Below, piece by piece: positions 4,609 to 62,239 of a stretch of 64,000 nt of DNA. The notes below the pieces were generated by a model. It did no database searches. It was not told where the DNA came from and saw only the letters and a list, made by a program, of their open reading frames with translations. A program made the translations under genes and the position numbers. Source of the stretch: Acidimicrobiales bacterium. Its GTDB lineage: Bacteria; Actinomycetota; Acidimicrobiia; Acidimicrobiales; GCA-2861595. The stretch spans positions 39,824 to 103,823 of the forward strand of contig DATLCN010000035.1 in the NCBI GenBank assembly GCA_035526335.1, in the 5' to 3' direction. Every line of letters begins with the position of its first letter. Within the stretch, counting starts at the first letter, position 1.

Positions 4609-4862
4609 GCTGAGCGGCGGTTCTGCTTGGTCACAAACAGCTTGTCCGCCCAGGCCGTCGCCTCCGTCCGCTGCGCCTCGTTCGTGGGCCCAAGCTCGGT
4701 CTCGAGCTCAGCCAGGTAGGTATCGAGCTCGGCGATCTTGGCCAGTCGGCCCAGCTCGGTTGAGACGGCCCGCTGGGCGAGCTGGGAGATATTCAGCCCA
4801 GCGCCCCGCGCTTGGTGGTAGAGGTCGTCCGGGATGGTGATGTTGACGCGGGCCATGCGCAT
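4605..4862 (-). CDS. vapB: ribbon-helix-helix / CcdA-like antitoxin partner of VapC
   Basis: 'M(R)MARVNITIPDDLYHQARGAGLNISQLAQRAV...'. The ORF track extends to 4943, but ATG 4862 or 4856 gives the typical antitoxin N-terminus. Confidence 0.75.
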   Translation of the reverse strand: MRMARVNITIPDDLYHQARGAGLNISQLAQRAVSTELGRLAKIAELDTYLAELETELGPTNEAQRTEATAWADKLFVTKQNRRSA

Positions 4863-5240
4863 AGAATACACATCATGAGGGCGGGACTGGAGGCTCGTCC
4901 GGGCGTGCCGCCCAAAATCGCCCGGGCCGCTCCGACGTGCCATTCACCGACCGGGAGGTGAGCGGCATTCGCTACGGGGCGGGCTGCAGACGGGCTACCG
5001 GCGCGGGCTGGGCTGCGGCTCGCGCCACTAAGTAACTCGGGTCCCTGAGCGGGGCACCGACGGCGGCCCTGGGCCGACCACGAGCGACCAGAAATGGAAC
5101 CCGACCGCACGCCCGTGACCGCCATGACACGCCGAATCGAACATCAATTTGTGGCCTGTTTGTGGCCTGCGCGTGGCCTGACCCGCTCACGAGGCCCCGT
5201 CGGCCGCCCGCTCACCCGGTCTGACCAGCACATTTCCAAG

Positions 5241-5312
5241 CGCCCTCGGCAGGACTCGAACCTGCGCCACCGGCTCCGGAGGCCGGTGCTCTATCCGCTG
5301 AGCTACGAGGGC
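5241..5312 (-). tRNA. tRNA-Arg (anticodon CCG)
   Basis: The reverse complement reads GCCCTCG-TA-GCTC-AGCGGATA-GAGC-A-CCGGC-CTCCGGA-GCCGG-TGGC-GCAGG-TTCGAGT-CCTGC-CGAGGGC-G. This is a full cloverleaf with anticodon loop CT-CCG-GA. CCA is not encoded. Confidence 0.95.
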
Positions 5313-20354: not shown

Positions 20355-20984
20355 GTGGCCATGCTGCCCGCCTCGGGCGACCCGCCGGCGGCCGAGCTCG
20401 TGCTCGAGGCCGTCGCGGCCCTGCACGCCGGCCAGATCGTGGCCGTCCCCACCGACACGGTCTACGGCCTGGCGGTGGATCCCTTCCGCGCCGGCGCCGC
20501 TGAGCGCCTCTTCGCGCTCAAGCGCCGGCCTCGTGAGGTGGACCTGCCGGTGCTGGTGGCGGACGAGCGGCAGGCGCTGTCGCTGACGGTGGCGGTGCCA
20601 GACGTCGCCCGCCGGCTCATGGGGCTGTACTGGCCAGGCGCGCTCACGCTCGTGCTCCCCCGCAACCCTGGTGTGGCCGCCGACCTGGGCACGGACGACG
20701 TCACCATCGGCCTGCGCTGCCCAGCTCACCTCGTTCCGCTGGCCCTCTGTGCCGCCGCCGGTCCCCTCGCCACCACCAGCGCCAACCTCCACGGCGAGCC
20801 CACCCTGTGCACCGCGGCCGAGGTCATCGCCACTTTCGGGGACTCCGTCAAGCTCGTCCTCGACGGCGGGACCTGCGCCGGCACACCCTCCACCGTGGTC
20901 GACTGCACCGGCGAAGTCCCCAAGCTCCTCCGCCGAGGCCGTATCCCGTGGGCCGAGATAGTCGCCGCCCTCCTCCAGACCTAG
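20355..20984 (+). CDS. tsaC: L-threonylcarbamoyladenylate synthase (TsaC/YwlC/Sua5 family)
   Basis: 209 aa with 'VAVPTDTVYGLAVD', 'LKRRP' and 'TTSANLHGEP'. Confidence 0.9.
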   Translation: MAMLPASGDPPAAELVLEAVAALHAGQIVAVPTDTVYGLAVDPFRAGAAERLFALKRRPREVDLPVLVADERQALSLTVAVPDVARRLMGLYWPGALTLVLPRNPGVAADLGTDDVTIGLRCPAHLVPLALCAAAGPLATTSANLHGEPTLCTAAEVIATFGDSVKLVLDGGTCAGTPSTVVDCTGEVPKLLRRGRIPWAEIVAALLQT

Positions 20985-21601: not shown

Positions 21602-22045
21602 GTGCGCGTCGCCATCGGTGCCGACCACGCCGGATACCCGCTCAAGTGCCACCTCGTCGCCACGCTGGAGAAGCTGGGCCACGAGGTGGACGACCACGGA
21701 ACCGACAGCGGGGAGTCGGTCGACTATCCCGAGATCTGTGCCGGCGTGGGCCTGGCGGTGGCAGAGGGCAGAGCCGACAGGGGGATCGTCCTGGGAGGCA
21801 GCGGCCAGGGCGAGCAGCTGGCGGCCAACAAGGTGCGGGGAGTGAGGGCGGCGCTGTGCAACGACCTGTACACGGCAAGGCTGTCCCGCGAGCACAACGA
21901 CGCCAACGTGCTGTCCATGGGCGGCCGGATTTTGGGTACCGGCCTGGCCGACGAAATCGTCACGCTGTGGCTCGCAACCGGGTTCGAGGGCGGCCGCCAC
22001 GCCAAGCGGGTCGAGCAGATCACCGCCATCGAGGCCCGTCAGTGA
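21602..22045 (+). CDS. rpiB: ribose-5-phosphate isomerase B
   Basis: 147 aa with '[15 protein letters not shown]' and '[17 protein letters not shown]'. Confidence 0.93.
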
Positions 22046-23301
22046 CCGGTATCCCTCTGAGCCAGGTCGATCCCGAGATCGCCGGCATCCTCGGCCGTGA
22101 ACGGGAGCGTCAGAACACCACCCTCCAGCTCATCGCCTCGGAGAACTTCACCTCGCCGGCGGTGATGGAGGCCACCGGGTCCGTCCTCACCAACAAGTAC
22201 GCCGAGGGCTATCCCGGCAGGAGGTATTACGGCGGCAACGAAGTGGTCGACGAGGCGGAGGATCTGGCCAGGGAGCGGTGCAAGGCTCTCTTCGGCGCAG
22301 AGCACGCCAACGTCCAACCGCACTCCGGCGCCAACGCCAACATGGCGATGTACCTGGCGCTGCTCGAGCCGGGCGACACCGTCATCGGCATGCGACTCGA
22401 TCAGGGCGGTCATCTCACCCACGGCTCACCGGTGAACATGAGCGGCCGCCTCTACAACTTCGTTTCCTACGGCGTGAGGGAGGACGACGAGCGACTCGAC
22501 CTCGACCAGATCCGGGATCTGGCCCGTGAGCACCGCCCGAAGATGATCGTGGCCGGGGCCACCGCCTACTCCCGGCTGATCGATCCGGCGCCGTTCCGCC
22601 TGATCGCCGACGAGGTGGGGGCCCTGTTCGTGTTCGACGCGGCCCACGTCGCGGGGTTGATCGCCGGCGGCGTCCACCCCGACCCCGTTCCCCTGGCCGA
22701 CGTCGTCACCTTCACGACCCACAAGACGCTCCGTGGACCACGGGGGGGCTGCATCGTCACCACCACCGAGCGCGGTGCGGCCGTCGACAAGGCGGTGTTC
22801 CCCGGCCTGCAGGGCGGACCGCTCGAGCACGTCATCGCGGCCAAGGCGGTGGCCTTCAAGGAGGCGGCGGAGCCTGATTTCCGCAGCTACGCGGCTCAGG
22901 TCGTGGCCAACGCCAGAGCCATGGTCGAGGCACTCACCGCCGAGGGTTTCCGCATCGTGTCGGGCGGTACCGACAACCACCTCATGCTGGTCGACCTCCG
23001 GCCCTTCGATGCCGAGCTCACCGGCAAGGAGGCCCAGATCGTCCTCGATCGGGCGGGCATCACCCTCAACAAGAACCAGATCCCCGGTGACCCCCGCTCG
23101 CCGTTCGTCACCAGTGGTGTGCGGATCGGCACCCCCGCCGTCACCACCGCCGGCATGACCGAGCCGGAGATGGCGACGGTGGCCTCCCTCATCGGCCGCG
23201 CCCTGCGAAAGCGGGGGGAGGAGGCCGAACTGGTCGCGGTGCGCGAGGAGGTCGGCGTCCTCTGCTCGAAGTTCACGCCCTACCCCCCGCCGGGGGGATA
23301 G
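22042..23301 (+). CDS. glyA: serine hydroxymethyltransferase
   Basis: '[17 protein letters not shown]', '[13 protein letters not shown]' and '[12 protein letters not shown]'. Start set at GTG 22042 (GTGA overlap with rpiB) instead of the track's 21343. Confidence 0.97.
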
Positions 23302-26338: not shown

Positions 26339-27022
26339 ATGCGCATCCGAGCGCTCACCGCCGCCGTCATGTTCGCCGTCCTCAGCGTCTTCGCCTTCGG
26401 CCGGGTTGCGGTGGCCCAGGAGGGGCCGCCCCAGGAGGGGCAAGAGGAGTCAAAGGCGACCCACGCCGGCGAGGAGTGCATCGAGATCCTGGAGAAGGGC
26501 GGCAAGGCCGAGGAGTGCCACGACGCGCCCAGCCCGATCATCCCGGAGACCAAGGAGATCGTCTGGGGTTCGATCTCCTTTCTCGCCTTGCTGTTCCTGA
26601 TGAGCAAGTTCGCCTACCCGGCGCTCAAGAAGAGCATGGACGCCCGCACCGCGAAGATCCGCGGCAACCTCGACGACGCCGAGCGGGTGAAGGCGGAAGC
26701 GGCCAAAGTGCTGGAGGACTACAAGCGCCAGCTGGCCGACGCCCGCAACGAGTCGAACCGCATCATCGAGGAGGCCCGCCAGACGGCCGACCAGCTGCGC
26801 CGCGACCTGATGCAGCGGGCCGAGGCCGAGGTGGCCGAGCTGCGCCAGAAGACCCGCGACGACATCAGCGCCGCTCAGGAGCGCGCCATGGCCGACCTGC
26901 AGTCCCGCGTCGGTGACATGGCCATCGAGCTGGCCGGGAAGGTGGTCGAGGCCAACCTCGACCGCGACGCCAACATTCGCCTCATCGACAGCTACATCGC
27001 CCAGGTGGGCAGCAGCTCCTGA
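26339..27022 (+). CDS. atpF: F0F1 ATP synthase subunit b with an N-terminal extension
   Basis: 227 aa. The canonical b begins near 'IVWGSISFLALLFLMSKFAYPAL' and is preceded by about 66 extra residues. An SD-like GAGGGG lies upstream of ATG 26339. Confidence 0.9.
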   Translation: MRIRALTAAVMFAVLSVFAFGRVAVAQEGPPQEGQEESKATHAGEECIEILEKGGKAEECHDAPSPIIPETKEIVWGSISFLALLFLMSKFAYPALKKSMDARTAKIRGNLDDAERVKAEAAKVLEDYKRQLADARNESNRIIEEARQTADQLRRDLMQRAEAEVAELRQKTRDDISAAQERAMADLQSRVGDMAIELAGKVVEANLDRDANIRLIDSYIAQVGSSS

Positions 27023-27052
27023 TGGGCACCTTCTCGTGATGAGCACGGTCAC

Positions 27053-27583
27053 ATGAGCACCAACACTCGCGTGCACGCCTACGCCTCGGCGTTGTTCGAG
27101 GTGGCCCGGGCCGAGGGTGCCCTCGACACCGTGGAGGAGGAGCTGTTCCGCGTCGCCCGCACCTTCGAGGGCAGCGACGAGCTGCGTTCCACCCTGACCG
27201 ACCAGGCCATCCCCGTGGAGATGCGCCAGGGCATCGTCGAGCAGCTGCTCGGCGACCGGGCCTCGCCCGTCACCACCTCGCTCGTCTCCTTCGTCGTGGG
27301 CGCCGGCCGCGCCCGCGACCTGCCCGCCATAATCGACCGGCTGGTGGAAGAGGCGGCCGATCAGCGGGACGAGGTCGTGGCCGAGGTGCGCTCCGCCGTC
27401 CCCCTCGACGTTGAGCAGAAAACCCGCCTGGCCGCCGCCCTCTCGGAGGCCACCAAGAAGAAGGTGAGCGTCAAGGTCATCGAGGACCCCAGTGTCCTCG
27501 GCGGCCTCATCGCCACCATCGGCGACACCGTCATCGACGGCTCCATTCGCCACCGTCTCGACCAGATGAAGGAATCACTGTGA
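27053..27583 (+). CDS. atpH: F0F1 ATP synthase subunit delta
   Basis: 176 aa, OSCP-like, with '[20 protein letters not shown]'. Confidence 0.9.
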
Positions 27584-29268
27584 GTCCTGAAGGAAACGGC
27601 TTCTCGATCAACCCCGACGACATCGCCGCCGCCCTGCGGGACCAGCTGGCGGGGTACACCCCGGAGATGACCGCGGCCCAGGTGGGGCGCATCATCGAGG
27701 TGGGCGACGGGATCGCCCGGGTCTCGGGCCTGCCCAACGCCGCGGTGAACGAGCTGCTCGAGTTCGAGGGCGGCGCCGTCGGCCTGGCCCTCAACCTCGA
27801 CGAGGAGTCCATCGGCGCCGTCATCCTCGGCGACGTGGAGCACATCCAGGAAGGCCAGTCGGTCAAGGCCACCGGGCGGATCCTGTCGGTCCCCGTAGGC
27901 GACAGCCTGCTGGGGCGGGTTGTCAATGCCCTGGGCGAGCCCATCGACGGCAAGGGCGACCTCAACTCCACCGAGACCCGCCGCCTCGAAGTCCAGGCCC
28001 CCGGCATCACCGGGCGCAAGCCGGTGCACGAGCCGCTCCAGACCGGCATCAAGGCCATCGACTCGATGACGCCGATCGGCCGGGGCCAGCGCGAGCTGAT
28101 CATCGGCGACCGCAAGACGGGCAAGACCAGCGTCGCCCTCGACACCATCATCAACCAGAAGGGCCTGGGGGTGAAGTGCATCTACGTGGCCATCGGCCAG
28201 AAGGGATCCACCGTCGCCCAGACCGTGGCCACCCTCGAGCAGTTCGGCGCCCTGGACTACACGGTGGTCGTGGTGGCGCCGGCGTCGGACCCCGCTCCCT
28301 ACAAGTACCTCGCCCCTTACGCCGGCTGCGCCATCGGCCAGCACTGGATGGACAACGGCGAGCACGCCCTCATCGTGTACGACGACCTGTCGAAGCAGGC
28401 CGAGGCCTACCGCCAGCTCGCCCTCCTCCTGCGCCGCCCGCCGGGCCGCGAGGCTTATCCCGGCGACGTGTTCTACCTCCACAGCCGCCTGCTGGAGCGG
28501 GCGGCCAAGCTCAACGAGAAGCTGGGCCTGGGTTCGCTCACCGCCCTGCCCATCATCGAGACCAAGGCGGGCGACGTGTCGGCCTACATCCCCACCAACG
28601 TGATCTCCATCACCGACGGCCAGATCTACCTGGAGACCGACCTGTTCAACGCCGGCGTGCGCCCGGCCATGAACGTAGGCATCTCGGTGTCCCGCGTGGG
28701 CAGCGCCGCCCAGGTGAAGGCCATGAAGGGTGTGGCCGGCACGCTCAAGACGGACCTGGCCCAGTTCCGCGAGCTGGAGGCCTTCGCCACCTTCGGCTCC
28801 GAGCTGGACAAGGTGTCGCAGGGCTACCTCGACCGCGGCTACCGGCTCACCGAGCTGCTCAAGCAGCCGCTGAACTCGCCCCTCGCCATCGAGGAGCAGG
28901 TGGTGTCCATCTACGCCGGCACCGGCGGCTTCCTCGACCCCATTCCGGTCACCGACGTGCGCCGCTTCGAGACCGAGGTGCTCGAGTACATGCGCACCCG
29001 CCACGCCGACCTCATGAAGACCATCAAGGAGAGCGGCAAGCTCCCCGACGACGACGCCCTCAAGACCGCGTTGGAGGGTTTCGCCGAGCAGTTCCAGCCC
29101 ACCGACTCCTCCTCGTCGGACGACGCCGGACCGCCGGAGAAGACGGATACGAAGACGGACACGAAGACGGACACGAAGACGGACACGAAGGCGGAGAAGG
29201 ACACGAACGACGGCGACGAGGCGGAGAAGAAGGACGCCGGCCCGCCTGCCGGGGACGGGGACGAGTGA
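27580..29268 (+). CDS. atpA: F0F1 ATP synthase subunit alpha with an acidic repeat-containing C-terminal extension
   Basis: 562 aa with 'GDRKTGKTS' (Walker A) and '[42 protein letters not shown]'. Confidence 0.98.
29140..29199 (+). repeat. 12-nt tandem repeat (AAGACGGAYACG x4 plus one degenerate unit) inside the atpA 3' end
   Basis: Units at 29140, 29152, 29164 and 29176 are identical except for one T/C difference. Unit 5 (29188) is degenerate. They encode (KTDT)4. Confidence 0.9.
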
Positions 29269-29431
29269 CGGCGCCGGGCGGGGTTGGGGCCTTGGGTACG
29301 CCAGTGACGGCACCGGGCGGGGATGGGCCCCCCATCTCGGGGAGGACGGCGGCCCCGGGTACGCCAGTGACGGCACCGGGCGGGGATGGGGACCCCGCCT
29401 CGGGGAGGAGGACGGGGTTGGGGCCCCGTCC
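29265..29431 (+). repeat. GC-rich direct/tandem repeat array filling the atpA-atpG spacer, ending in a strong hairpin
   Basis: The core GTGACGGCRCCGGGCGGGGWTGGGG occurs at 29265, 29304 and 29367. A 63-nt tandem unit spans 29304-29366 and 29367-29429. The hairpin GGACGGGG/CCCCGTCC is at 29410-29431. Confidence 0.85.
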
Positions 29432-29447
29432 GGGGAAAACAACATAG

Positions 29448-31882
<2,435 letters not shown>

Positions 31883-33999: not shown

Positions 34000-36924
34000 G
34001 TGGTCTCCTCGACTGCCGGCCCCGCCCAGCAACTGGCAGAGGTACTGGCCGTGCTGGCGTCGTCGCAGGGCGAGGACACGGCGGCGCAGCGTGGGCTGGA
34101 GCGGATCGCCGAATGCTTCGACGCGGAGGTGGGCGCACTGGTCAACGCCAAGGCGATAGCCGCGGTGATCGGCTTCCCGGTTGGAAAGGTGCCGACTGCG
34201 GAGCTGCTCGAGGCCGCTGCCGGGCAGCGTCAGCACCTGGACCTGCCCGGTGCGGGCGAGGGCACGGTGGTCACCGTTCCGGTGGAGAGGGAGACCGACA
34301 GCTCGATCGTCCTGGTGCGCTCCGGCGGCCAGGACTTCGATCCGGAGGAGGTGAGCCTCCTGCGGGGCATGGCCAAGGTGCTGGCCCTCGCCCTGCGGAT
34401 GCTGCGCATGGTGGACACCATCCAGCAGAGCGAGGAGCACTCCCGGGCCATCCTCCGTTTTGCCGACGACGCCTTCATCTCCATGGACTCCGACGGGCGG
34501 GTCACGGCCTGGAACGAGAAGGCGATGAAGACGTTCGGTTGGTCCGAGAGCGAGGCCATCGGGAGCGAAATGGCGGAGCTGGTCGTACCTCCCCGACACC
34601 GTCGTGCCCACCGGGAGGGATTGTCCCGCTTCCTCGCCACCGGCGAGGGCCCCGTCCTCAACCAGCGCATCGAGACCACGGCGTGGCGGGAGGACGGCAT
34701 CGAGATCCCCGTCGAGATGGCCATCTGGCCCGTGTCCTCGAACGGGACGTGGACCTTCAGCGCCTTCGTCCGCGACATCTCGGAACGTCGCCGGGCCGAG
34801 GAGGCTTTGAGAAGGAACGAGCGGCGTCTGGCCGACGCCCAGGAGATCGCCCGCCTGGGCAGTTGGGAATGGACCACATCCCAGAACAGCATGTCGTGGT
34901 CGGACCAGCTTTACAGCGTCTTCGGCCGCCCGGCGGGGACCGTCGCTTCACTGGAGGACTTCATCTCGTCGGTCCATTCCGAGGACCGTGAGCTGGTCGA
35001 CCAGGCCCTCCGCACCGCCTCGGAGTCTGCCGAGCGATTCGAGCTCGAATGCCGTGTCGCTCTGCCGGAAGAGGCGGAGCGTGTTGTCCACGTGCGGGGC
35101 GAGCCCGTCCTCGATGGCGGGGGGCTGTTGGTCGGGTTCCGCGGGACGGGCCAGGACGTCACCGAGATCACGCGTGCCGAGCGGGAGACCGATCGTCTGG
35201 CCACCGAGCTTCGTCTGCTGCTCGAGTCAGCGGCCGAGGGGATATGGGGGGTGGACGTCGAGGGCTCCTTCACCTTCATCAACCGGGCGGCGGCACAGAT
35301 GTTCGGGTGGGCGCCCGAGGAGATGATCGGCAAGAACGCCCACCTCATGGTGCACCACAGCCGCCCGGATGGCAGTGCCTACCCAGCCGAGGACTGCCCC
35401 ACCTTCCGCTCGTTCCGGTCCGGCGAGGGCCACCGGATCGACGGGGAGGTGCTGTGGCGCCGGGACGGCACTGCGTTCCCCACTTCCTATGCCTCGTTCC
35501 CGATCGAGCACGACGGAGTCCTCCAGGGGGCCGTCATCACGTGCTCGGACATAACCGAGAGGCAGAAGGCGGCCGACGCCCTGAGCGAGGCCAACCTGCG
35601 CCTCCAACAGCTCGCCAGCAGCGATGCGCTCACCGGCCTGCCGAACCGCGCCCTGTTCTCCGATCGTCTGGATCAGGCTCTGGCTCTGGCCCGCCGCGAG
35701 CAGCGGGAGGTCGCGGTGCTGTTCATCGACCTCGACCGCTTCAAGGACGTCAACGACAGCCTGGGCCACCACACCGGTGACGATCTGCTGGTGGAGGTCT
35801 CCCACCGTCTGACCGACGCGTTGCGCGACAGCGACACCGTGGCCCGGCTCGGTGGCGACGAGTTCGCCGTCCTGCTGGGCGGGACGGCGTCCCCCGAGGA
35901 GGCAGCGGCGGCGGCCGAGCGGATCCTGACGTCGTTCCGGCGACCCTTCACCATCGGAGGGGTCGAGTTCATGGTCAGCGCCAGCGTCGGAGTGGCTCTC
36001 TGGCCGGAGGACTGCCGCTCCAAGGCCGAGCTGCTCCAGCACGCCGACGTCGCCATGTACCGGTCCAAGGCGGCGGGCGGCAACCGCTTCGAGATGTTCC
36101 AGCCGGCCATGACCGTGGCCGCCCGGGACCGCCTGACCGTGGAGCGCGAGATGCGGCTTGCCCTCGAAGCGGGGCGGTTCTTCCTCCGTTACCACCCGCA
36201 GGTCGAGCTGGCCACCGGAGCCGTGGTGGGGGTGGAGGCGCTGGTGCGCTGGGAGCATCCGCGGCGGGGCGAGGTGATGCCGCTCGAGTTCATCGAGCTG
36301 GCCGAGGAGACCGGCCTGATAGTTCCCATCGGTGCCTGGGTGCTCATGGAGGCCTGCCGCCAGGCCGCCCGTTGGCGGGTCGAGCTGGCGGAGAGGGCCC
36401 CTCTGCGGATGGCCGTCAACGTCTCCCCGCGGCAGCTGGCCAACGCCGACTTCGTGGCCCAGGTGGAAGACAGTCTGGCGGGAACGGGCCTTGCTGCCAC
36501 CGATCTCGAGTTGGAGATCACCGAGAGCACCCTCATCAGCGAGACCGGCCCCGCCGCCGGCACCTTGAAGACCTTGCGCCAGCTCGGGATAAGCGTAGCC
36601 ATCGACGACTTCGGCAGCGGCTACTCGTCCTTGGGCCACCTGCGGCGCTTTCCGGTGGATCGCCTGAAGCTCGACATGTCCTTCGTCGCCGGCCTGGGGC
36701 GCCCCAAGACCTGTGACGGTCGTCATGACGAGACGGCTCTCGTGGCTGCCGCCGTCGACCTGGCTCACGCCCTGGGCATCCAGGCCCTGGCCGAGGGCGT
36801 GGAGACCGAGGATCAACGCCTGGCTCTGGTCGCCATCGGCGCCGAGGAGGCCCAGGGCTACTTGTGGACCCGTCCGCTACGCAGCGACGAGTTCACGGAA
36901 TGGTTGGGTGCTCAGGCGACCTGA
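34000..36924 (+). CDS. multi-PAS GGDEF-EAL protein (c-di-GMP cyclase/phosphodiesterase)
   Basis: 974 aa. An N-terminal GAF-like region is followed by three PAS/PAC repeats. It has 'RLGGDEFAVLL' (intact GGDEF), 'VGVEALVRW' (EAL) and 'DDFGSGYSSL'. Confidence 0.93.
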   Translation: MVSSTAGPAQQLAEVLAVLASSQGEDTAAQRGLERIAECFDAEVGALVNAKAIAAVIGFPVGKVPTAELLEAAAGQRQHLDLPGAGEGTVVTVPVERETDSSIVLVRSGGQDFDPEEVSLLRGMAKVLALALRMLRMVDTIQQSEEHSRAILRFADDAFISMDSDGRVTAWNEKAMKTFGWSESEAIGSEMAELVVPPRHRRAHREGLSRFLATGEGPVLNQRIETTAWREDGIEIPVEMAIWPVSSNGTWTFSAFVRDISERRRAEEALRRNERRLADAQEIARLGSWEWTTSQNSMSWSDQLYSVFGRPAGTVASLEDFISSVHSEDRELVDQALRTASESAERFELECRVALPEEAERVVHVRGEPVLDGGGLLVGFRGTGQDVTEITRAERETDRLATELRLLLESAAEGIWGVDVEGSFTFINRAAAQMFGWAPEEMIGKNAHLMVHHSRPDGSAYPAEDCPTFRSFRSGEGHRIDGEVLWRRDGTAFPTSYASFPIEHDGVLQGAVITCSDITERQKAADALSEANLRLQQLASSDALTGLPNRALFSDRLDQALALARREQREVAVLFIDLDRFKDVNDSLGHHTGDDLLVEVSHRLTDALRDSDTVARLGGDEFAVLLGGTASPEEAAAAAERILTSFRRPFTIGGVEFMVSASVGVALWPEDCRSKAELLQHADVAMYRSKAAGGNRFEMFQPAMTVAARDRLTVEREMRLALEAGRFFLRYHPQVELATGAVVGVEALVRWEHPRRGEVMPLEFIELAEETGLIVPIGAWVLMEACRQAARWRVELAERAPLRMAVNVSPRQLANADFVAQVEDSLAGTGLAATDLELEITESTLISETGPAAGTLKTLRQLGISVAIDDFGSGYSSLGHLRRFPVDRLKLDMSFVAGLGRPKTCDGRHDETALVAAAVDLAHALGIQALAEGVETEDQRLALVAIGAEEAQGYLWTRPLRSDEFTEWLGAQAT

Positions 36925-45102: not shown

Positions 45103-45208
45103 TGCAGCCCTACGGAACTACGGACACGTTTGTGGCAATGGCTCCCAGCGTGCCGCGACGGCTCCGATGCTGCATCAGCAAACGTGTCCGTATCCACCGG
45201 GCTGCACT
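45101..45208. terminator. long imperfect inverted repeat between convergent vapC and MFS genes (candidate bidirectional terminator or structured RNA)
   Basis: Outer arms AGTGCAGCCC / GGGCTGCACT (45101-45110 / 45199-45208). Inner arms CGGACACGTTTG / CAAACGTGTCCG (45121-45132 / 45179-45190). Both pairs are perfect. The arms touch both stop codons. No clear U-tract. Confidence 0.4.
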
Positions 45209-46965
45209 TAGTGATCTCGTGGATTGAGCTCCGCCGTTGGTCGATGTAATGGAGCATCCTCGGGGTTGAGATCCTCCAGCTCACGGTGGGCTGTCTCGGG
45301 ATAGGCGACGAGGACCAGGACGGCGAGCACGGCCGGTCCGATGGCGAGGACGGCCAGGGCCGGGCCCAGGCTGCCCAACTGGGTCGACAGGTAGCCGGCG
45401 GCCAGCAGTCCGAGAACCCCGCCGCACCGGCCGAGGGTGGTGATGATCCCGTTGGCCTTCCCCCGCATCGCGGTGGGGAAGAGCTCCGGCCCGTAAACGC
45501 CGAGGGCGGGGACAGTGGCGGCGCCGACCACCGACCCAAGCGCCGACCATGCCCACACCGGCCAGCCGTGAGTCGAGTACGAGAAGACCGTCGACCCGAC
45601 ACCGCCTACCACGGCCACCGCGCCCACCAGGCGCCGGCCCCGCTCGGCCAGACGCCCACCCAACACCACCCCGATGGCGCCGGGGATTCCCGTGAGGATG
45701 GTGAACATCGAGATGTCGCCAGCCGAGAAGCCTCGCTCGGTGCGCAGGTACTCATTGCCGAACTGCGAGGCCGGCGCGAAGAAAAGGTTGAGAAGGAAGG
45801 CGGACGCAGCCAACAACCAAAACCGCCCGGCATGACGCCGCTTCGCCGCGGCGATCGGATCCGGACCAAAAGCGGGCGGTGCCGGGCCGGTCTGCGTCGG
45901 GGCCGCGTCCAGGCCAAGAGCGGACGGCGCCGGACGGGGATGGGGCCGGCGCCCCGGCGAGGGGGACGGGGCTGGGGCCCCGTCCGGGTGAAGGGCATAG
46001 GCGCGGAAGCGCCGGCTTTCGGGAAGGCGCCGGGCCACAGATACGACGACGGGGACGCCAACCAGGGCGGCGGCGAAGAGGAAGCGCCACGCATCCAGGC
46101 CGGCATCTGCGAAGCGCAGGAGGAGCACGCACACGCCGGCGCCGAAGCCGGCCGACATGCCGAGCAGCGAGACGGCGTAGGCCCGGGAGCCGGCCGCCAT
46201 CTCCTCGGCGGCGACGATGGCCAGCATGATGGCGGCGGCCGTCACGAACCCGCGGGCCACCACCTGGCTGCCGGCGAGATATGGCAACGAAGGCACCAGA
46301 GCGCCGGTGGCGGTGACCACGCAGCCGAGCCCGGCCGTCCAGAGCAGCACCGAGCGCCGGCCCCGCCGGTCGGCCAGCCACACCAGGCCCACGGCGATGA
46401 CCACGTCCGCTCTCACAGAGGCCAGCGCCACCGACTGGGATCCCTTGTCGGCGCCGAACTCCCGAGCGGCGAAGGTGATGGTCTGGGTCAGGATCGTCCC
46501 GAGGTAGCCCGTGACCATCGACAGCAGGCACAGCGCGGCCAGGGCGACGGCGCCCTCCTGGCTGATCCGCTCGGGCGGGCTCCACCACGGCCACCCTCGC
46601 CGAGGCTCCAAGCCGGCGAGGCGGCGCCGCACCGCCCACCGGAACATCCAGCCGAACCAGGGGATGTCCAGCTCGTACTCCACCGTCTGGCGCACCCGGC
46701 GCCGCCTGTCGCTACCGCCGGCGCCTCCGGTGCCGGCTTGTCGCTCCCCGACACGCTCCACGTCATCGCCAGCGGATCGCCCGGCGGCACCTTCGCAACT
46801 CCCGCCGGCGGATCGCCCAGTTACGCCATCGCCAACGTCGCCCTCATCGGCTGGCGCCCCCAGGATCTCCACGCGCCGGCGGTAGTGCCGGAACGGTCCC
46901 TCCAGCGCGCTGAAGATCCCGTCACCGGCCGCCCGCTCGAGCACCAGCCCGTCGCGGGGCGCCAT
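45208..46965 (-). CDS. MFS transporter with an extra N-terminal cytoplasmic region
   Basis: Twelve predicted TM segments, with 'LADRRGRR' in loop 2-3. The track ORF runs to 47097 and overlaps the M20 gene. ATG 46965 ('MAPRDG...') avoids that overlap. Confidence 0.85.
   Translation of the reverse strand: MAPRDGLVLERAAGDGIFSALEGPFRHYRRRVEILGAPADEGDVGDGVTGRSAGGSCEGAAGRSAGDDVERVGERQAGTGGAGGSDRRRRVRQTVEYELDIPWFGWMFRWAVRRRLAGLEPRRGWPWWSPPERISQEGAVALAALCLLSMVTGYLGTILTQTITFAAREFGADKGSQSVALASVRADVVIAVGLVWLADRRGRRSVLLWTAGLGCVVTATGALVPSLPYLAGSQVVARGFVTAAAIMLAIVAAEEMAAGSRAYAVSLLGMSAGFGAGVCVLLLRFADAGLDAWRFLFAAALVGVPVVVSVARRLPESRRFRAYALHPDGAPAPSPSPGRRPHPRPAPSALGLDAAPTQTGPAPPAFGPDPIAAAKRRHAGRFWLLAASAFLLNLFFAPASQFGNEYLRTERGFSAGDISMFTILTGIPGAIGVVLGGRLAERGRRLVGAVAVVGGVGSTVFSYSTHGWPVWAWSALGSVVGAATVPALGVYGPELFPTAMRGKANGIITTLGRCGGVLGLLAAGYLSTQLGSLGPALAVLAIGPAVLAVLVLVAYPETAHRELEDLNPEDAPLHRPTAELNPRDH
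45919..46000. repeat. copy of the atpA-atpG spacer repeat family inside the MFS coding sequence
   Basis: Aligns by eye with 29367-29447, including the hairpin GGACGGGG-CTGGGG-CCCCGTCC at 45964-45985 and the trailing CATAG. Confidence 0.75.
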
Positions 46966-47015
46966 GATCCGCTCCACAGAGGCGGCGTCGAACGCCCCCT
47001 CCGAGACGGCCTTCG

Positions 47016-48179
47016 TCACAAAGCCGAAGCGGTGAAGGTGGCGAAGAGCTCGGCGTACACGGCGGCGGCGTCGATCAGACGGGTGACCGACACCCATTCA
47101 TCGTTGACGTGCGCCTGGGAGACCTCGCCGGGCCCGCAAACCACGGCGGGGATCCCGGCCTGGTTGCGCACGAAACGGGCGTCGGTGGTGAAGCCCATTC
47201 CGATCACGGGCGCCTCCGCGCCAAGAGTGGCGGCAATGGCCGCCTGGACCTGCCCCACGAAACCGTGTGAGGGGTCGAGCTCGGAGGCCTCGCCGTAGAC
47301 GCTCACCTCCAGCTCGTAGCGGAGGTCGGCGTCGTCGACCGAATCGATGAGCTTCCTCAGGCCGGCCTCGACCTCCGCTTGGTCGACACCGGGCAGCAGC
47401 CGGCGGTCGACGGTGATGGTGCAGCGCTCGGCGACGGTGTTGTGGCCGGAGCCGCCCTCGATGACGCCCACGTTGCATGTCGGTGATCCGAGCAGGGGAT
47501 GGGCCGCCGCCCCGAAGTCGGCGGCGTGGAGAGCCAGGACCACCTTGGCCGCCACCTCGATGGCCGAGACGCCCCGGCGGGGATCGCTGCCGTGGGCCGG
47601 GCGGCCGAAGACGGTGACGTCGGCGACCATCAGGCCGCGCTCGGCCACACAGACGGCCATCCCCGTCGGCTCGGGGACGAGGCACGCGTCGCCGTGCACC
47701 AAGCCCGCCTCCACCAGTGCCCGGGTACCCAGCCCCCCGCCGCGTTCCTCATCGGCCACCAGGTGGAACACCACGTCACATGAGGGCTGGCGCCCCGCCC
47801 GCCGTAGGACATGCAGTGCCTCCACCGCTGAGGCGATCCCTCCTTTCATGTCTGCCATCCCCCGGCCGTAGAGGCGGTCGCCGTCGAGGCGGCCGGCGAA
47901 GGGATCGCAGGTCCACCCGGCCTCGTCCACGGGCACGACGTCGAGGTGGCCGTTGACGATCAGCACCGGCCTGCTTCCGTCCGCCGCTCCGATGGTGGCG
48001 GCCAACGACGTACGGCCGGGCGCCGGCTCCACCTCGTGGAACGAGGGGTCGAACGGCTCCAGCATCCGTCTGGCCACATCGAGAGCCGCCCGCTCGTTGC
48101 CCGGCGGGTTCTGCGTGTCCACCGCCACCAGAGCCCGGGCACACGCCACGAGGGCCTCGGCATCGACGTGACGGCGCAT
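47016..48179 (-). CDS. M20-family metallopeptidase (ArgE/DapE/CPG2-like deacylase)
   Basis: 387 aa with 'LIVNGHLDVVPV', 'GRGMADMKGG' and 'HLVADEERGG'. Confidence 0.9.
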   Translation of the reverse strand: MRRHVDAEALVACARALVAVDTQNPPGNERAALDVARRMLEPFDPSFHEVEPAPGRTSLAATIGAADGSRPVLIVNGHLDVVPVDEAGWTCDPFAGRLDGDRLYGRGMADMKGGIASAVEALHVLRRAGRQPSCDVVFHLVADEERGGGLGTRALVEAGLVHGDACLVPEPTGMAVCVAERGLMVADVTVFGRPAHGSDPRRGVSAIEVAAKVVLALHAADFGAAAHPLLGSPTCNVGVIEGGSGHNTVAERCTITVDRRLLPGVDQAEVEAGLRKLIDSVDDADLRYELEVSVYGEASELDPSHGFVGQVQAAIAATLGAEAPVIGMGFTTDARFVRNQAGIPAVVCGPGEVSQAHVNDEWVSVTRLIDAAAVYAELFATFTASAL

Positions 48180-59929: not shown

Positions 59930-62239
59930 TTGGCTCCCGAGCTCGCCGTACACGGCCACTTCTACCAACCCCCGAGGGAGAACCCGTGGACCGAGGAGGT
60001 GGCGCGCGAGACGTCGGCCGCGCCCTTCCACGACTGGAACGAGCGGATCGCAGCCGAGGCCTACCGGCCGAACGCCGCCGCCCGCATCCTCGACGACGCC
60101 GGCCGGGTGGTCGCCATCGTCAACAACTACGAGCGACTCTCCTTCGACGCCGGGCCCACCCTCATGGCGTGGTTGGAGCGTCACGAACCTGACGTATACG
60201 CCGCCATCATCGCCGCCGACGCCCGAGGTGGGGGCGCCATGGCCCAGGCCCACGGCCACATCATCCTGCCGCTGGCTTCTCCTCGGGACGTGCGCACCCA
60301 GATCCGCTGGGGACTGGCGGACTTCGTCTACCGGTTCCGCCGGCCGGCGGACGGCATGTGGCTGCCCGAGACGGCGGTGAACGACGACGTGCTAGCCGTC
60401 CTCGCCGAGGAGGGTGTCGCCTTCACCATCCTGGCTGCCCACCAGGCGGCGACCCAGCTGCAACCCATCGACACCAGCCGGGCCTACCGCTGGACCCATC
60501 CCGACGGCTCCGGCAGGTCGGTCGCGCTGATCTTCTACGACGGCGGGCTCTCCCACGCTCTGGCCTTCGAACTGGCGGGGTTGTCCAGCCGGGCCTTCCT
60601 CGACAGGGTCACCGACGGCCACTCCGGCCTCGTCACGGTGGCGGCCGATGGGGAGACATTCGGGCACCACCAGCGCTGGGGAGAGCGCTTCCTGGCCCAC
60701 TCCCTCGCCGTGGAGGCGCCCCGGCACGGGGTCGAGGTCGTCAACGTCGCCCGGTACCTGGCCGCCCACCCGCCTGGAAGACCGGCCTCGGTGCGGGAGA
60801 GCAGCTGGTCGTGTGCCCATGGCGTGGGCCGGTGGCGGGAGGACTGCGGATGCTCCACGGGCGCCCGGCCGGGCTGGGACCAGCGGTGGCGGACACCGCT
60901 GCGAGCGGCACTCGACGGGCTCCGCGACCACGCCGCCGCCGTCTTCGAACGACGGGGGACATCGGTGCTGGCCGATCCCTGGGCGGCCCGCGACCGCTAC
61001 GTCGACGTACTTCTCGGGGCCCGGACCCCCGAGGAGTTCGCCGCCGCCCACGTCACCGGAGACCCCGTGGTGGCGTTCAGCCTGCTCGAGGCACAGCGCC
61101 ACGCCATGGCCATGTACACCTCGTGCGGGTGGTTCTTCAACGACCTGGCGGGGCTGGAGACGGTGCAGGTGCTGCGCTACGCGGCGCGGGTGATGGACCT
61201 CCTCCGGGAGCTCGACGAGGATCCCGGCGAGGTCGCCTTCCTCGAGGTGCTGGACAAGGCGGAGAGCAACGTCGCCGAGGAGGGCGCCGGCCGGGATGTC
61301 TGGGCCAACCACGTGGTGCCGGCGCGGGTGGATGCCCACCGGGCGGTGGCGCACCTGGCCCTGGTCGACCTGCTCGAAGGTCGCCGCCCCGCAGGTGAGG
61401 CCGGGGCCTTCGAGGTGCACGCGGTGGAGCACTTCCGGGCCGACCGCGGCGCGGTGGCTCTCTCCTCGGGCCACGTGGCGCTCACCCATCGGCGGACCGG
61501 CCGGCGGACTGAGCACCTGTGGGCCGCGCTCCACCTCGGTGGACTCGAGGTGGTCGGCTCCACCCGCACATTCGACTCCGGATCGGAGGAGGCCGGCGAA
61601 GCTCTGCACACCCTCCGCCGCGCCTTCGACGACGGCGCTCCGGTCACCACGCTCCTGCGCATGGTCGGGGGGCTGGGGCCCCGCGAGTTCGACCTCCGGT
61701 CCGCCCTCCCCGACGCGGCCGAGCGGCTGGTGGAGAACGCCGCGGCCGCGCTGTCCGACCGGTTCGCGGCGGCCTACGAGCGCCTCGTGGACGACCACTG
61801 GCACATTCTCAAGGCCTTCGCCTCAGCCGGCCACCCCATTCCCCCCGAGCTGCGGGCCCCCGCCGAGCTGGTGCTGGCCCGCCGTCTCGAGGCGGAGATC
61901 CTCGCTCAGCACGGCTCGCTGGAGGCCGGCGCCTACAACGCGGCCCGGCGCATCGCGCAGGAGGCAACGGCCAGTGGCTTCGCCGTCGACACACCCAGAG
62001 TGCGGGAGGCCATCAGCCGCCTTCTCCTGGCCGCGGTGAGCCGGGCCGTCGACGGCGCCGGCGTGGACGAGGCCATCGCCGTGCTCCGCCTGGCCCGGGA
62101 GCTCCGAGTCGCCGTGCCCGTCGAGCGACCCCAGGAGCTGGTCCACGCGGCCCTGACCGGCGACGAGGCCGGCGTGGACGTGAACCAACGCAAGGGCCTC
62201 CGTCCGTTGGCCACGGCACTCAACCTCGCCGTCGACTAG
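59930..62239 (+). CDS. GH57-family glycoside hydrolase with a DUF3536-type C-terminal region
   Basis: 769 aa with 'VHGHFYQPPRENPW', 'NYERLSFDAGPTLMAWL' and 'MWLPETAV'. Confidence 0.88.
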   Translation: MAPELAVHGHFYQPPRENPWTEEVARETSAAPFHDWNERIAAEAYRPNAAARILDDAGRVVAIVNNYERLSFDAGPTLMAWLERHEPDVYAAIIAADARGGGAMAQAHGHIILPLASPRDVRTQIRWGLADFVYRFRRPADGMWLPETAVNDDVLAVLAEEGVAFTILAAHQAATQLQPIDTSRAYRWTHPDGSGRSVALIFYDGGLSHALAFELAGLSSRAFLDRVTDGHSGLVTVAADGETFGHHQRWGERFLAHSLAVEAPRHGVEVVNVARYLAAHPPGRPASVRESSWSCAHGVGRWREDCGCSTGARPGWDQRWRTPLRAALDGLRDHAAAVFERRGTSVLADPWAARDRYVDVLLGARTPEEFAAAHVTGDPVVAFSLLEAQRHAMAMYTSCGWFFNDLAGLETVQVLRYAARVMDLLRELDEDPGEVAFLEVLDKAESNVAEEGAGRDVWANHVVPARVDAHRAVAHLALVDLLEGRRPAGEAGAFEVHAVEHFRADRGAVALSSGHVALTHRRTGRRTEHLWAALHLGGLEVVGSTRTFDSGSEEAGEALHTLRRAFDDGAPVTTLLRMVGGLGPREFDLRSALPDAAERLVENAAAALSDRFAAAYERLVDDHWHILKAFASAGHPIPPELRAPAELVLARRLEAEILAQHGSLEAGAYNAARRIAQEATASGFAVDTPRVREAISRLLLAAVSRAVDGAGVDEAIAVLRLARELRVAVPVERPQELVHAALTGDEAGVDVNQRKGLRPLATALNLAVD

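Follow-up and report, generated by a model that had tools for sequence, protein, structure and literature searches.

A G-rich two-hairpin element, probably a dispersed repeat, in the atpA–atpG spacer of an Acidimicrobiales bacterium

The atpA–atpG spacer

The ATP synthase operon of an Acidimicrobiales bacterium (assembly GCA_035526335.1) carries a repetitive spacer between the genes for the alpha and gamma subunits, which we analysed within a stretch of 64,000 nucleotides (contig DATLCN010000035.1, positions 39,824–103,823; hereafter the window), with a G+C content of 69.6%. The atpA gene (27580–29268, plus strand, 562 amino acids) ends in a TGA stop at 29266–29268 and is followed by atpG (29448–30443, plus strand, 331 amino acids), which leaves the predicted spacer of 179 nt at 29269–29447. 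This spacer is made up of three pieces of a G-rich two-hairpin element of about 75–90 nt: a complete copy, a copy with an internal deletion, and a fragment. Judging from sequence comparison, the element is very probably a dispersed repeat. The assignment of atpA comes from the list of open reading frames (ORFs) and a codon-usage gene call, and is backed by a C-terminal alignment and by synteny with the atp operons of the related loci L001–L003, whose products carry the Pfam domain ATP-synt_ab. That of atpG rests on PF00231 and on homologues, which were used in place of an exact-protein look-up that gave no record; the best of them are F0F1 ATP synthase gamma subunits from uncultured Acidimicrobiales metagenome-assembled genomes (MAGs), with 88–91% identity.

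The original prediction, made from the sequence alone, had described this spacer as an array of direct repeats ending in a hairpin, and we recovered each of these features. The core GTGACGGCRCCGGGCGGGGWTGGG starts at 29265, 29304 and 29367, with no occurrence expected (100 shuffles), and a 63-nt unit is repeated in tandem at 29275–29337 and 29338–29400 with 81% identity. The 8-bp hairpin GGACGGGG-TTGGGG-CCCCGTCC (29410–29431; seven G–C pairs and one A–T pair) lies 16 nt 5′ of the atpG ATG. Tandem Repeats Finder did not report the array, its sole report being a 12-nt repeat within the atpA tail described below. A terminator scan of 28900–29700 found no intrinsic terminator on the plus strand, the sequence following the last hairpin being A-rich with no T run, and the promoter and terminator scan gave nothing relevant on that strand. 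A CRISPR array was considered and rejected, because the units abut without unique spacers between them.

Anatomy of the element and its copies in the window

The units of the element measure about 72–93 nt, and their anatomy is read here 5′ to 3′ on the G-rich strand. A head, ACGGC, is followed by hairpin 1, the linker GGAGGAGG, hairpin 2, and CGGG with a variable tail. Hairpin 1 comprises an outer helix of 3–4 bp, a variable 3-bp section, a GGGG/CCCC core and the loop NNGGGG(N), and in some copies (L018, L098, L104 and L112) it is replaced by an unrelated hairpin. Hairpin 2 has the form NNNGGGG, loop TTGGGG, CCCCNNN. The tails are of two types: type A forms a third small hairpin, GCGGCGAAGCCGCC, and is frequent in long arrays and directly behind the stop codon of opposite-strand genes, and type B is A-rich and either ends in ...CACAG or ...CATAG or runs into the start codon.

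In the atp spacer, all three units lie on the plus strand. Unit 1 (29265–29303, 39 nt) is a fragment in which the 5′ head is joined to GGGGTTGGGGCC, which resembles the hairpin 2 loop; the covariance model described below, run unfiltered, finds in it only a piece like hairpin 2 at 29279–29294. Unit 2 (29304–29366, 63 nt) has a degenerate hairpin 1 and has lost the core of hairpin 2; its model match at 29298–29360 scores 25.1 bits and has 1 nt in place of 14 model positions. Unit 3 (29367–29447, 81 nt) is a complete element, matched by the model at 29361–29436 with 76.1 bits and an E-value of about 1e-13 to 1e-15. Its hairpin 1, placed by the model alignment and its covarying columns, occupies 29376–29403 (CCGGGCGGGG, loop ATGGGGA, CCCCGCC(T)CGG). 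It is followed by the Shine–Dalgarno-like linker at 29404–29411, which is kept in most copies that the search pattern had not selected, and by the hairpin at 29410–29431, which is hairpin 2 of the element and is supported by compensatory variants. The unit closes with an A-rich tail of type B, GGGGAAAACAACATAG (29432–29447), ending in a stop that abuts atpG. This tail recurs as GGGGGAAACAACATAG in L002 and as GGGGAAAAAGGCATAG in L122, and a ...CATAG tail is also found at 45984–45995 in the window and in L084.

A second copy lies at 45915–45990 on the plus strand (covariance model, 50 bits), where the core pattern also matches at 45921–45945. For GGACGGGGYTGGGGCCCCGTCCGGG, which comprises the hairpin and its flank, the window holds exactly two occurrences, one within the atp spacer and the other at 45964–45988, with 0 predicted by chance. 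The second copy is antisense to, and in frame within, the central loop of an MFS transporter (...HPDGAPAPSPSPGRRPHPRPAPSAL...) encoded at 45208–47097 on the minus strand (Pfam MFS_1, E = 6e-23); the minus frame is coding on both sides of the insert, and the coding score is about 0 over 45840–46080. The insert may be old, because the MFS orthologue of L002 has a weak model hit at 20828–20893. Other candidates in the window were not accepted as copies: GGGGCTGGGGCCCC at 61669 is a chance occurrence within a coding region, and the model hits at 34605–34680 (19 bits) and 4820–4905 (17 bits) are weak.

Covariation of the two hairpins

Covariation was used as the guide to structure because thermodynamics alone cannot reveal structure in DNA so rich in G+C. 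The covariance model was built from 129 distinct copies. Under the proposed structure, 91.9% of cells pair, compared with 79.6% in shuffles, and the covariation score is 0.336, compared with 0.136 in shuffles (0 of 500 reach the observed value) and at most 0.08 when the partners are slid. A single hairpin 2 pair occurs as AU 46, GC 41, CG 32 and UA 4 times, and compensatory variants of this hairpin across the copies include AC/GT, CT/AG, GC/GC and AT/AT, among others. The window and the atp copies of L002 themselves differ by such a double compensatory change (AC/GT in the former, CT/AG in the latter). Judged by this strong covariation, both hairpins are real. Since G·U pairs outnumber A·C pairs by 82 to 6 across the copies, the G-rich strand is the folding strand. 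Rfam 15 holds no family that matches the element, either in the window at gathering thresholds or in an E-value scan of 29000–29700, which gave chance-level matches only (E ≥ 4.5); the sole Rfam match in the window at the gathering threshold is a tRNA gene at 5241–5312 on the minus strand.

The recurring GGGG-N2-GGGG runs raise the question of whether the element acts instead, on DNA or RNA, by forming a G-quadruplex. The GGGG runs of the loops are unpaired and nearly invariant (TTGGGG in 122 of the 129 copies and CTGGGG in 7 for hairpin 2; NNGGGG for hairpin 1), and 29276–29296 fits the motif of four G3+ runs separated by N1-7. However, the hairpin 2 loop was partly fixed by the search pattern, and the G runs of the stems covary with C runs as Watson–Crick helices, which makes a quadruplex-based explanation very improbable.

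Empty and filled junctions

Eight close relatives, the window included, were compared at the atpA–atpG junction (88–91% gamma identity), of which three are filled and five are empty. In L001, L003, L121, L123 and L124, the junction is an empty TAATG overlap. It is filled in the window, in L002 and in L122, whose contig starts inside the element. A further 80 more distant atp loci (47–68% gamma identity) have no copy at this junction, and their spacers mostly measure -1 to 9 nt. On this comparison, it is very likely that the spacer is an insertion and not an ancestral feature of the atp operon, the TAATG overlap being the likely ancestral state.

The filled sites do not follow the other lineage-specific feature of this locus, a C-terminal tail of the alpha subunit. 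In the window this tail (29104–29265, plus strand, 54 amino acids, rich in K, T, D and E) lies outside the element, has a third-position G+C of about 0.93 and holds the 12-nt tandem repeat GAAGACGGACAC in 4.8 copies at 29139–29195. The C-terminal alignment shows it to be absent from L001, L002, L003 and L121 (atpA of 512–513 amino acids), and it was not seen in L122. Homologous tails are present in L123 and L124 (atpA of 564 amino acids in L124), whose atpA overlaps atpG without a spacer. Filled sites thus occur in both a tailed lineage (the window) and an untailed one (L002), which implies repeated insertion or repeated clean loss.

This distribution also bears on the earlier proposal that the spacer is a relic, or a frameshift-accessible extension, of the alpha C-terminus. 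Such an origin would fit an alpha subunit that already has a lineage-specific tail, one that in the window ends before those of L123 and L124, and an upstream gene does read through the element at six other loci. However, the tail is a separate feature, conserved in L123 and L124 where the spacer is missing, L002 has the spacer without the tail, and the atpA frame ends cleanly at TGA. No slippery site was noticed in reading the sequence, although no search was aimed at one. The proposal did not hold up, and we consider such an extension barely plausible.

Two other junctions are found both empty and filled. The rpiB–glyA junction is empty in the window (CAGTGACC) and filled in L001 and L002, where the insert is flanked by TGAC, and the atpF–atpH junction is an empty TAATG overlap in L001 and filled in L002, with ATGA on both flanks. 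Flanking duplications vary in sequence and length (TGA, TGAC, ATGA and TGAGCAC, 3–7 nt, and once about 25 nt). A strict target of TGA directly before the head was rejected, as about 8 of 129 copies, counted by eye, have it, which is the chance level.

Several observations touch on how inserts arise and are lost. The atpF–atpH spacer of the window (27020–27055) has 30 nt composed of three partial copies of TGATGAGCAC (TGATGGGCAC / TGATGAGCAC / ATGAGCAC), and it may be the scar of a lost element. The leader of the atp-spacer units, ACGCCAGTGA (29294–29303 and 29357–29366), equals the 3′ end of rpiB, CGCCAGTGA (L001 2885–2894; L002 2441–2450); this end flanks the rpiB–glyA copy in L001 and L002, and the window site (22040–22047) is the empty one. 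It looks as if the rpiB flank had been copied along with the element. A tail of AATGAGCACAG or AAATGAGCTCAG is found 3′ of hairpin 2 at unrelated loci (L054, L086 and L062; L002 7760–7772) and matches the 5′ end of atpH, ATGAGCAC, a further hint of flanks carried with the element. In L060 (4110–4225), about 25 nt, among them the start of the downstream gene (GGGCGATGAGCGACGCCACCAGGACCCTG), are duplicated on either side of the element, and a partial element lies before it, which points to tandem growth by local duplication taking in host sequence. Finally, two distant loci, L161 (about 315–416) and L168 (about 1314–1446), have a different hairpin repeat at atpA–atpG, with covarying arms, the loop region GGGTATCCC and a tail ...ATAGAC|ATG, so that this junction seems to have been colonised repeatedly.

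Distribution and genomic context

A degenerate pattern scan covering one genome per species detected at least 117 stretches in at least 41 species genomes. Among the matches listed, nearly all belong to Acidimicrobiales or Acidimicrobiia MAGs and a few are labelled as Actinomycetes, Frankiaceae or Mycobacteriales MAGs; all loci are from Actinomycetota MAGs. At E ≤ 1e-3, the covariance model matches the gathered loci 166 times. Arrays hold 1–6 copies, and one MAG (BC3.65) has at least 12 stretches and another at least 8. Among the close relatives, L002 has two tandem copies at atpA–atpG and two at atpF–atpH, and both L002 and L001 carry the element at rpiB–glyA. No match was found in a plasmid collection. 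We found no description of this family in the literature on repeats of Acidimicrobiia and Acidimicrobiales, in a search that was not exhaustive.

The element is found in all kinds of gene arrangement. Among 130 arrays, 31 lie between two genes on the element's own strand, 19 between two opposite-strand genes, 16 after convergent genes and 9 between divergent genes, with about 36 overlapping a called coding region. Nine intragenic hosts were checked with Pfam, and all nine are real proteins, with the insert sense and in frame in eight: DnaE (two loci, one with two inserts), TopA, Mfd, HemA, RlmN, GcvP and a HerA-like helicase. Their Pfam domains are intact on either side of the insert (L044, L058, L060, L067, L070, L074, L082 and L083). 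The ninth host is the MFS transporter of the window with its antisense copy. All three sense frames are used by intragenic copies. We infer that the element is mobile. Because its structure is strand-specific, yet copies occur in both orientations relative to genes, these data suggest that the hairpins serve the propagation of the element rather than the host mRNAs.

The same context speaks to the proposal that the spacer is a dedicated cis-regulatory RNA of the atp operon, with hairpins that lower gamma relative to alpha (3:1) or that stabilise or process the mRNA. The covarying hairpins, the G·U pairs pointing to the sense strand and the position of the last hairpin 16 nt 5′ of the ATG would all be expected of such an RNA. 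In ATP synthase, the subunits encoded after the atpA–atpG and atpF–atpH junctions are needed in fewer copies, and both colonised atp junctions would accordingly precede a subunit of this kind. Against it stand the absence of the element from the junction in five of the eight close relatives and in the 80 distant ones, its presence, in either orientation, at unrelated junctions, behind convergent genes and within coding sequences, the lack of an Rfam match and the lack of a terminator-like T run. A dedicated tuning device for the gamma:alpha ratio is therefore improbable, and what the hairpins may exert is a side effect on gamma translation.

Several public contigs start or end inside a copy (L122 1–40, L015 1–46, L063 1–43, L065 3296–3346 and L081 1781–1818), which suggests that the repeat breaks short-read assemblies of Acidimicrobiia MAGs.

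A proposed relay frame across the spacer

One frame is open across the whole spacer of the window, from GTG 29265, which overlaps the atpA TGA as GTGA, to TAG 29445–29447, which abuts the atpG start as TAGATG. This 60-codon micro-ORF (29265–29447, plus strand), for which translation reproduced the peptide given in the original prediction, is called here the relay frame, and the same design was found in L002 and at eight further sites. Openness alone means little in DNA of 70% G+C, where this frame has no stop from 28176 on (423 codons). In L002, a GTG likewise lies over the atpA TGA, a single frame is open through both copies and a TAG abuts the ATG; the atpF–atpH insert of L002 runs from ATGA to ATGA, and the rpiB–glyA inserts run from GTGA to ATGA.

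Such a frame could be read as a functional 60-residue micro-protein of the atp operon. In favour of this, the open frame is coupled at both ends, L002 encodes a similar peptide, and the coupling, as had been proposed, is real and recurs there and at unrelated junctions. The atp-specific protein did not stand. The objection already raised on codon usage holds, with a G+C content by codon position of 0.69/0.80/0.79 compared with 0.67/0.43–0.45/0.93–0.96 in atpA and atpG, a non-coding composition. The comparison of relatives, proposed earlier as a way to tell coding from structure, gave covarying hairpins and a frame kept in L002, but the ORF is absent from the five empty relatives, and the compensatory stem changes between the window and L002 alter the residues (T/R to L/Q). 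Other sites read hairpin 2 in shifted frames, and the copies within dnaE, topA, mfd, hemA, rlmN, gcvP and the MFS gene make use of all three sense frames as well as of antisense reading. A micro-protein with a role of its own is thus highly improbable.

More is learned from how the two ends of the frame relate to each other. We examined 33 sense sites with a downstream start within 40 nt, comprising 21 spacers, 6 read-through sites, in which the frame of the upstream gene runs on across the element and its stop overlaps the start of the following gene (NTGA or TGATG), and 6 others, mostly intragenic. Of the spacers, 12 combine a start codon at the stop of the upstream gene with a stop codon at the start of the downstream one; in 10 of these 12, both ends are in register and joined by a fully open frame, compared with one third expected (binomial P = 5.4e-4; with the two orthologous pairs counted once, 8 of 10, P about 3e-3). 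Insert lengths vary (74, 77, 83, 83, 92, 155 and 170 nt), and all are 2 mod 3; the extra units of the window (39 and 63 nt) also keep the frame. Of 11 spacer sites with antisense copies, only 1 has a relay, so G+C-richness alone does not yield it.

A second candidate design, a built-in mini-ORF formed by GGAGGAGG and the TTG of the hairpin 2 loop and ending at the downstream start, fits the window and L002; of all 22 sites, only 10 have it in frame, a non-significant share, and it was rejected.

We favour, at a probability of roughly 0.7, the reading that the atpA–atpG spacer is an insert of a small non-autonomous dispersed repeat, partly duplicated in place, in which the relay frame keeps the two genes coupled. 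In this mechanism, a ribosome ending alpha would re-initiate on the relay frame at GTG 29265, would melt the hairpins while translating, and would terminate at TAG|ATG, at the gamma start; termination there would preserve termination–reinitiation coupling from alpha to gamma. The relay peptide would be a by-product without a role of its own. In the relatives with an empty site, atpG overlaps atpA and has no obvious Shine–Dalgarno sequence near its start, and for this reason atpG probably depends on coupling. It is probably through the doubly coupled micro-ORF that the operon tolerates the element, and we infer that the relay is translated and important for gamma expression. Functional use of the frame is the less certain part of this reading, and we consider it only slightly more likely than not.

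A number of observations weigh against this reading, and several of them would equally fit the same dispersed repeat with a relay frame that is a functionless by-product, the NTGA overlap being duplicated on insertion, the openness being due to chance and atpG using its own weak ribosome-binding site. The relay is not obligatory, since 9 of the 21 sense spacer sites lack a complete one. Openness is cheap, because G-rich DNA seldom holds stops (most frames across element spacers have 0 or 1), and only the end-to-end frame relation is informative. Duplication of the target might by itself produce the NTGA ends, and TGA-containing direct repeats do flank several inserts. An A after the start or before the stop is only marginally enriched (P about 0.04–0.05), the baseline of A after a start codon being already 36%, and gene starts were taken from a custom codon-usage caller. 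In the window, the distance from GGAGGAGG to the atpG ATG, 16 nt even with the hairpin folded, is too great for direct use. The RNA fold prediction, another of the checks proposed earlier, returned an unremarkable energy for the spacer, no better than that of shuffles (z = -0.41). Neither the ends of the element nor the target duplication are sharply delimited, and no recurrent transposase-like neighbour was found when 764 flanking proteins from 8-kb snippets were clustered all-against-all. Chance alone, however, should have placed only one third of the double-ended frames in register instead of 10 of 12, and the shared length class of the varied inserts, the frame-preserving duplications of the window, the near absence of the design from antisense copies and the probable dependence of atpG on coupling all run counter to a by-product. 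We therefore consider the functionless relay unlikely.

Comparison with known repeat families

The closest counterparts are the mycobacterial MIRUs. According to PMC12548453, which cites Supply et al. 1997, these are mobile, insert at start codons and contain an ORF coupled to the downstream gene at a spacing of -4, which likely minimises the effect on expression; PMC3184786 mentions tetranucleotide direct repeats and both empty and filled sites. The element resembles MIRUs in unit size (40–100 bp for MIRUs, 72–93 nt here), in occurring singly or in tandem (1–6 copies here) at tens of loci in an actinobacterial genome, in its position at operon junctions and in its G+C-rich internal inverted repeats. 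Empty and filled sites with short direct repeats are shared as well (here atpA–atpG, rpiB–glyA with TGAC and atpF–atpH with ATGA), the repeat length not being constant. So is an internal ORF that overlaps the stop codon before it and the start codon after it, although TAG|ATG in the window corresponds to a spacing of 0 and not -4. In contrast, the host belongs to the Acidimicrobiia and not to Mycobacterium. The element also has a strongly covarying two-hairpin core, occurs in both orientations and is often in frame within housekeeping genes. With regard to the co-orientation with operon genes that marks MIRUs, its arrays are spread over own-strand, opposite-strand, convergent, divergent and many intragenic positions. 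The likeness drawn here is one of design, and no membership of the MIRU family is claimed.

In-frame insertion into genes recalls other families. Rickettsia palindromic elements (RPEs; Ogata et al. 2000) and the Bordetella BRE are presented in PMC3184786 as selfish hairpin repeats in frame within genes, some of them essential, and the element described here is likewise found in frame inside genes (DnaE, TopA, Mfd, HemA, RlmN, GcvP, HerA-like and MFS), essential ones among them. It differs from RPEs, again by description, in being shorter, in its non-rickettsial hosts (Actinomycetota MAGs) and in being also common at junctions, with a coupled ORF.

REP and BIME sequences share with it the abundance of G+C-rich extragenic hairpins, often clustered, and a strand-specific structure tolerant of G·T would fit recognition as single-stranded DNA (ssDNA). 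However, its units are longer and have two hairpins, and no RAYT or IS200/IS605-type gene was found near the arrays in the 8-kb snippets. To our knowledge, REPs are not known for relay ORFs. MITEs (Correia/NEMIS, RUP and BOX) are comparable in being small and non-autonomous, with empty and filled sites and effects on the expression of neighbours, and PMC3184786 notes that some are fused to ORFs. Here, visual inspection of the aligned copies revealed no terminal inverted repeats, no dedicated search for termini having been made, and the flanking duplications vary in length.

The position of the linker suggests a further parallel. Many downstream starts lie 5–12 nt 3′ of hairpin 2, and GGAGGAGG stands directly 5′ of it, so that folding would give a normal spacing to these starts; this suggests that at such sites the folded hairpin 2 may bring the linker next to the start. 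Hairpin-bridged, or split, ribosome-binding sites exist, for example in phage T4 gene 25. At the atp site, the 16-nt tail is too long for bridging alone.

Implications

For annotation, the atpA–atpG spacer should be read as a repeat insertion and not as a new atp gene or a riboswitch-like element of the atp operon. The same repeats would explain assembly breaks in Acidimicrobiia MAGs, such as the contigs of L122, L015 and L063 that end in a copy. As a family, the element would be a second, independent and richer case of the MIRU design, a selfish insert that sustains operon translation through a coupled relay, and it pairs this MIRU-like relay with in-frame inserts in essential genes (dnaE, topA and mfd) of the kind known from RPEs. 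The large number of copies with compensatory changes offers comparative power beyond that of the roughly 40 MIRU loci of M. tuberculosis, and could make the movement of MIRUs and the role of their relay testable.

More speculatively, and with considerable doubt, the element may be a very diverse, undescribed branch of a MIRU-like superfamily of Actinomycetota that targets start/stop overlaps (NTGA/TAATG), brings its own translation kit (the relay and GGAGGAGG set against a hairpin), propagates in a strand-specific, hairpin-dependent manner (through ssDNA or its own transcript) and settles in frame in essential genes. If this were true, hundreds of covarying copies could show how MIRU-type elements move and how their relay ORFs work.

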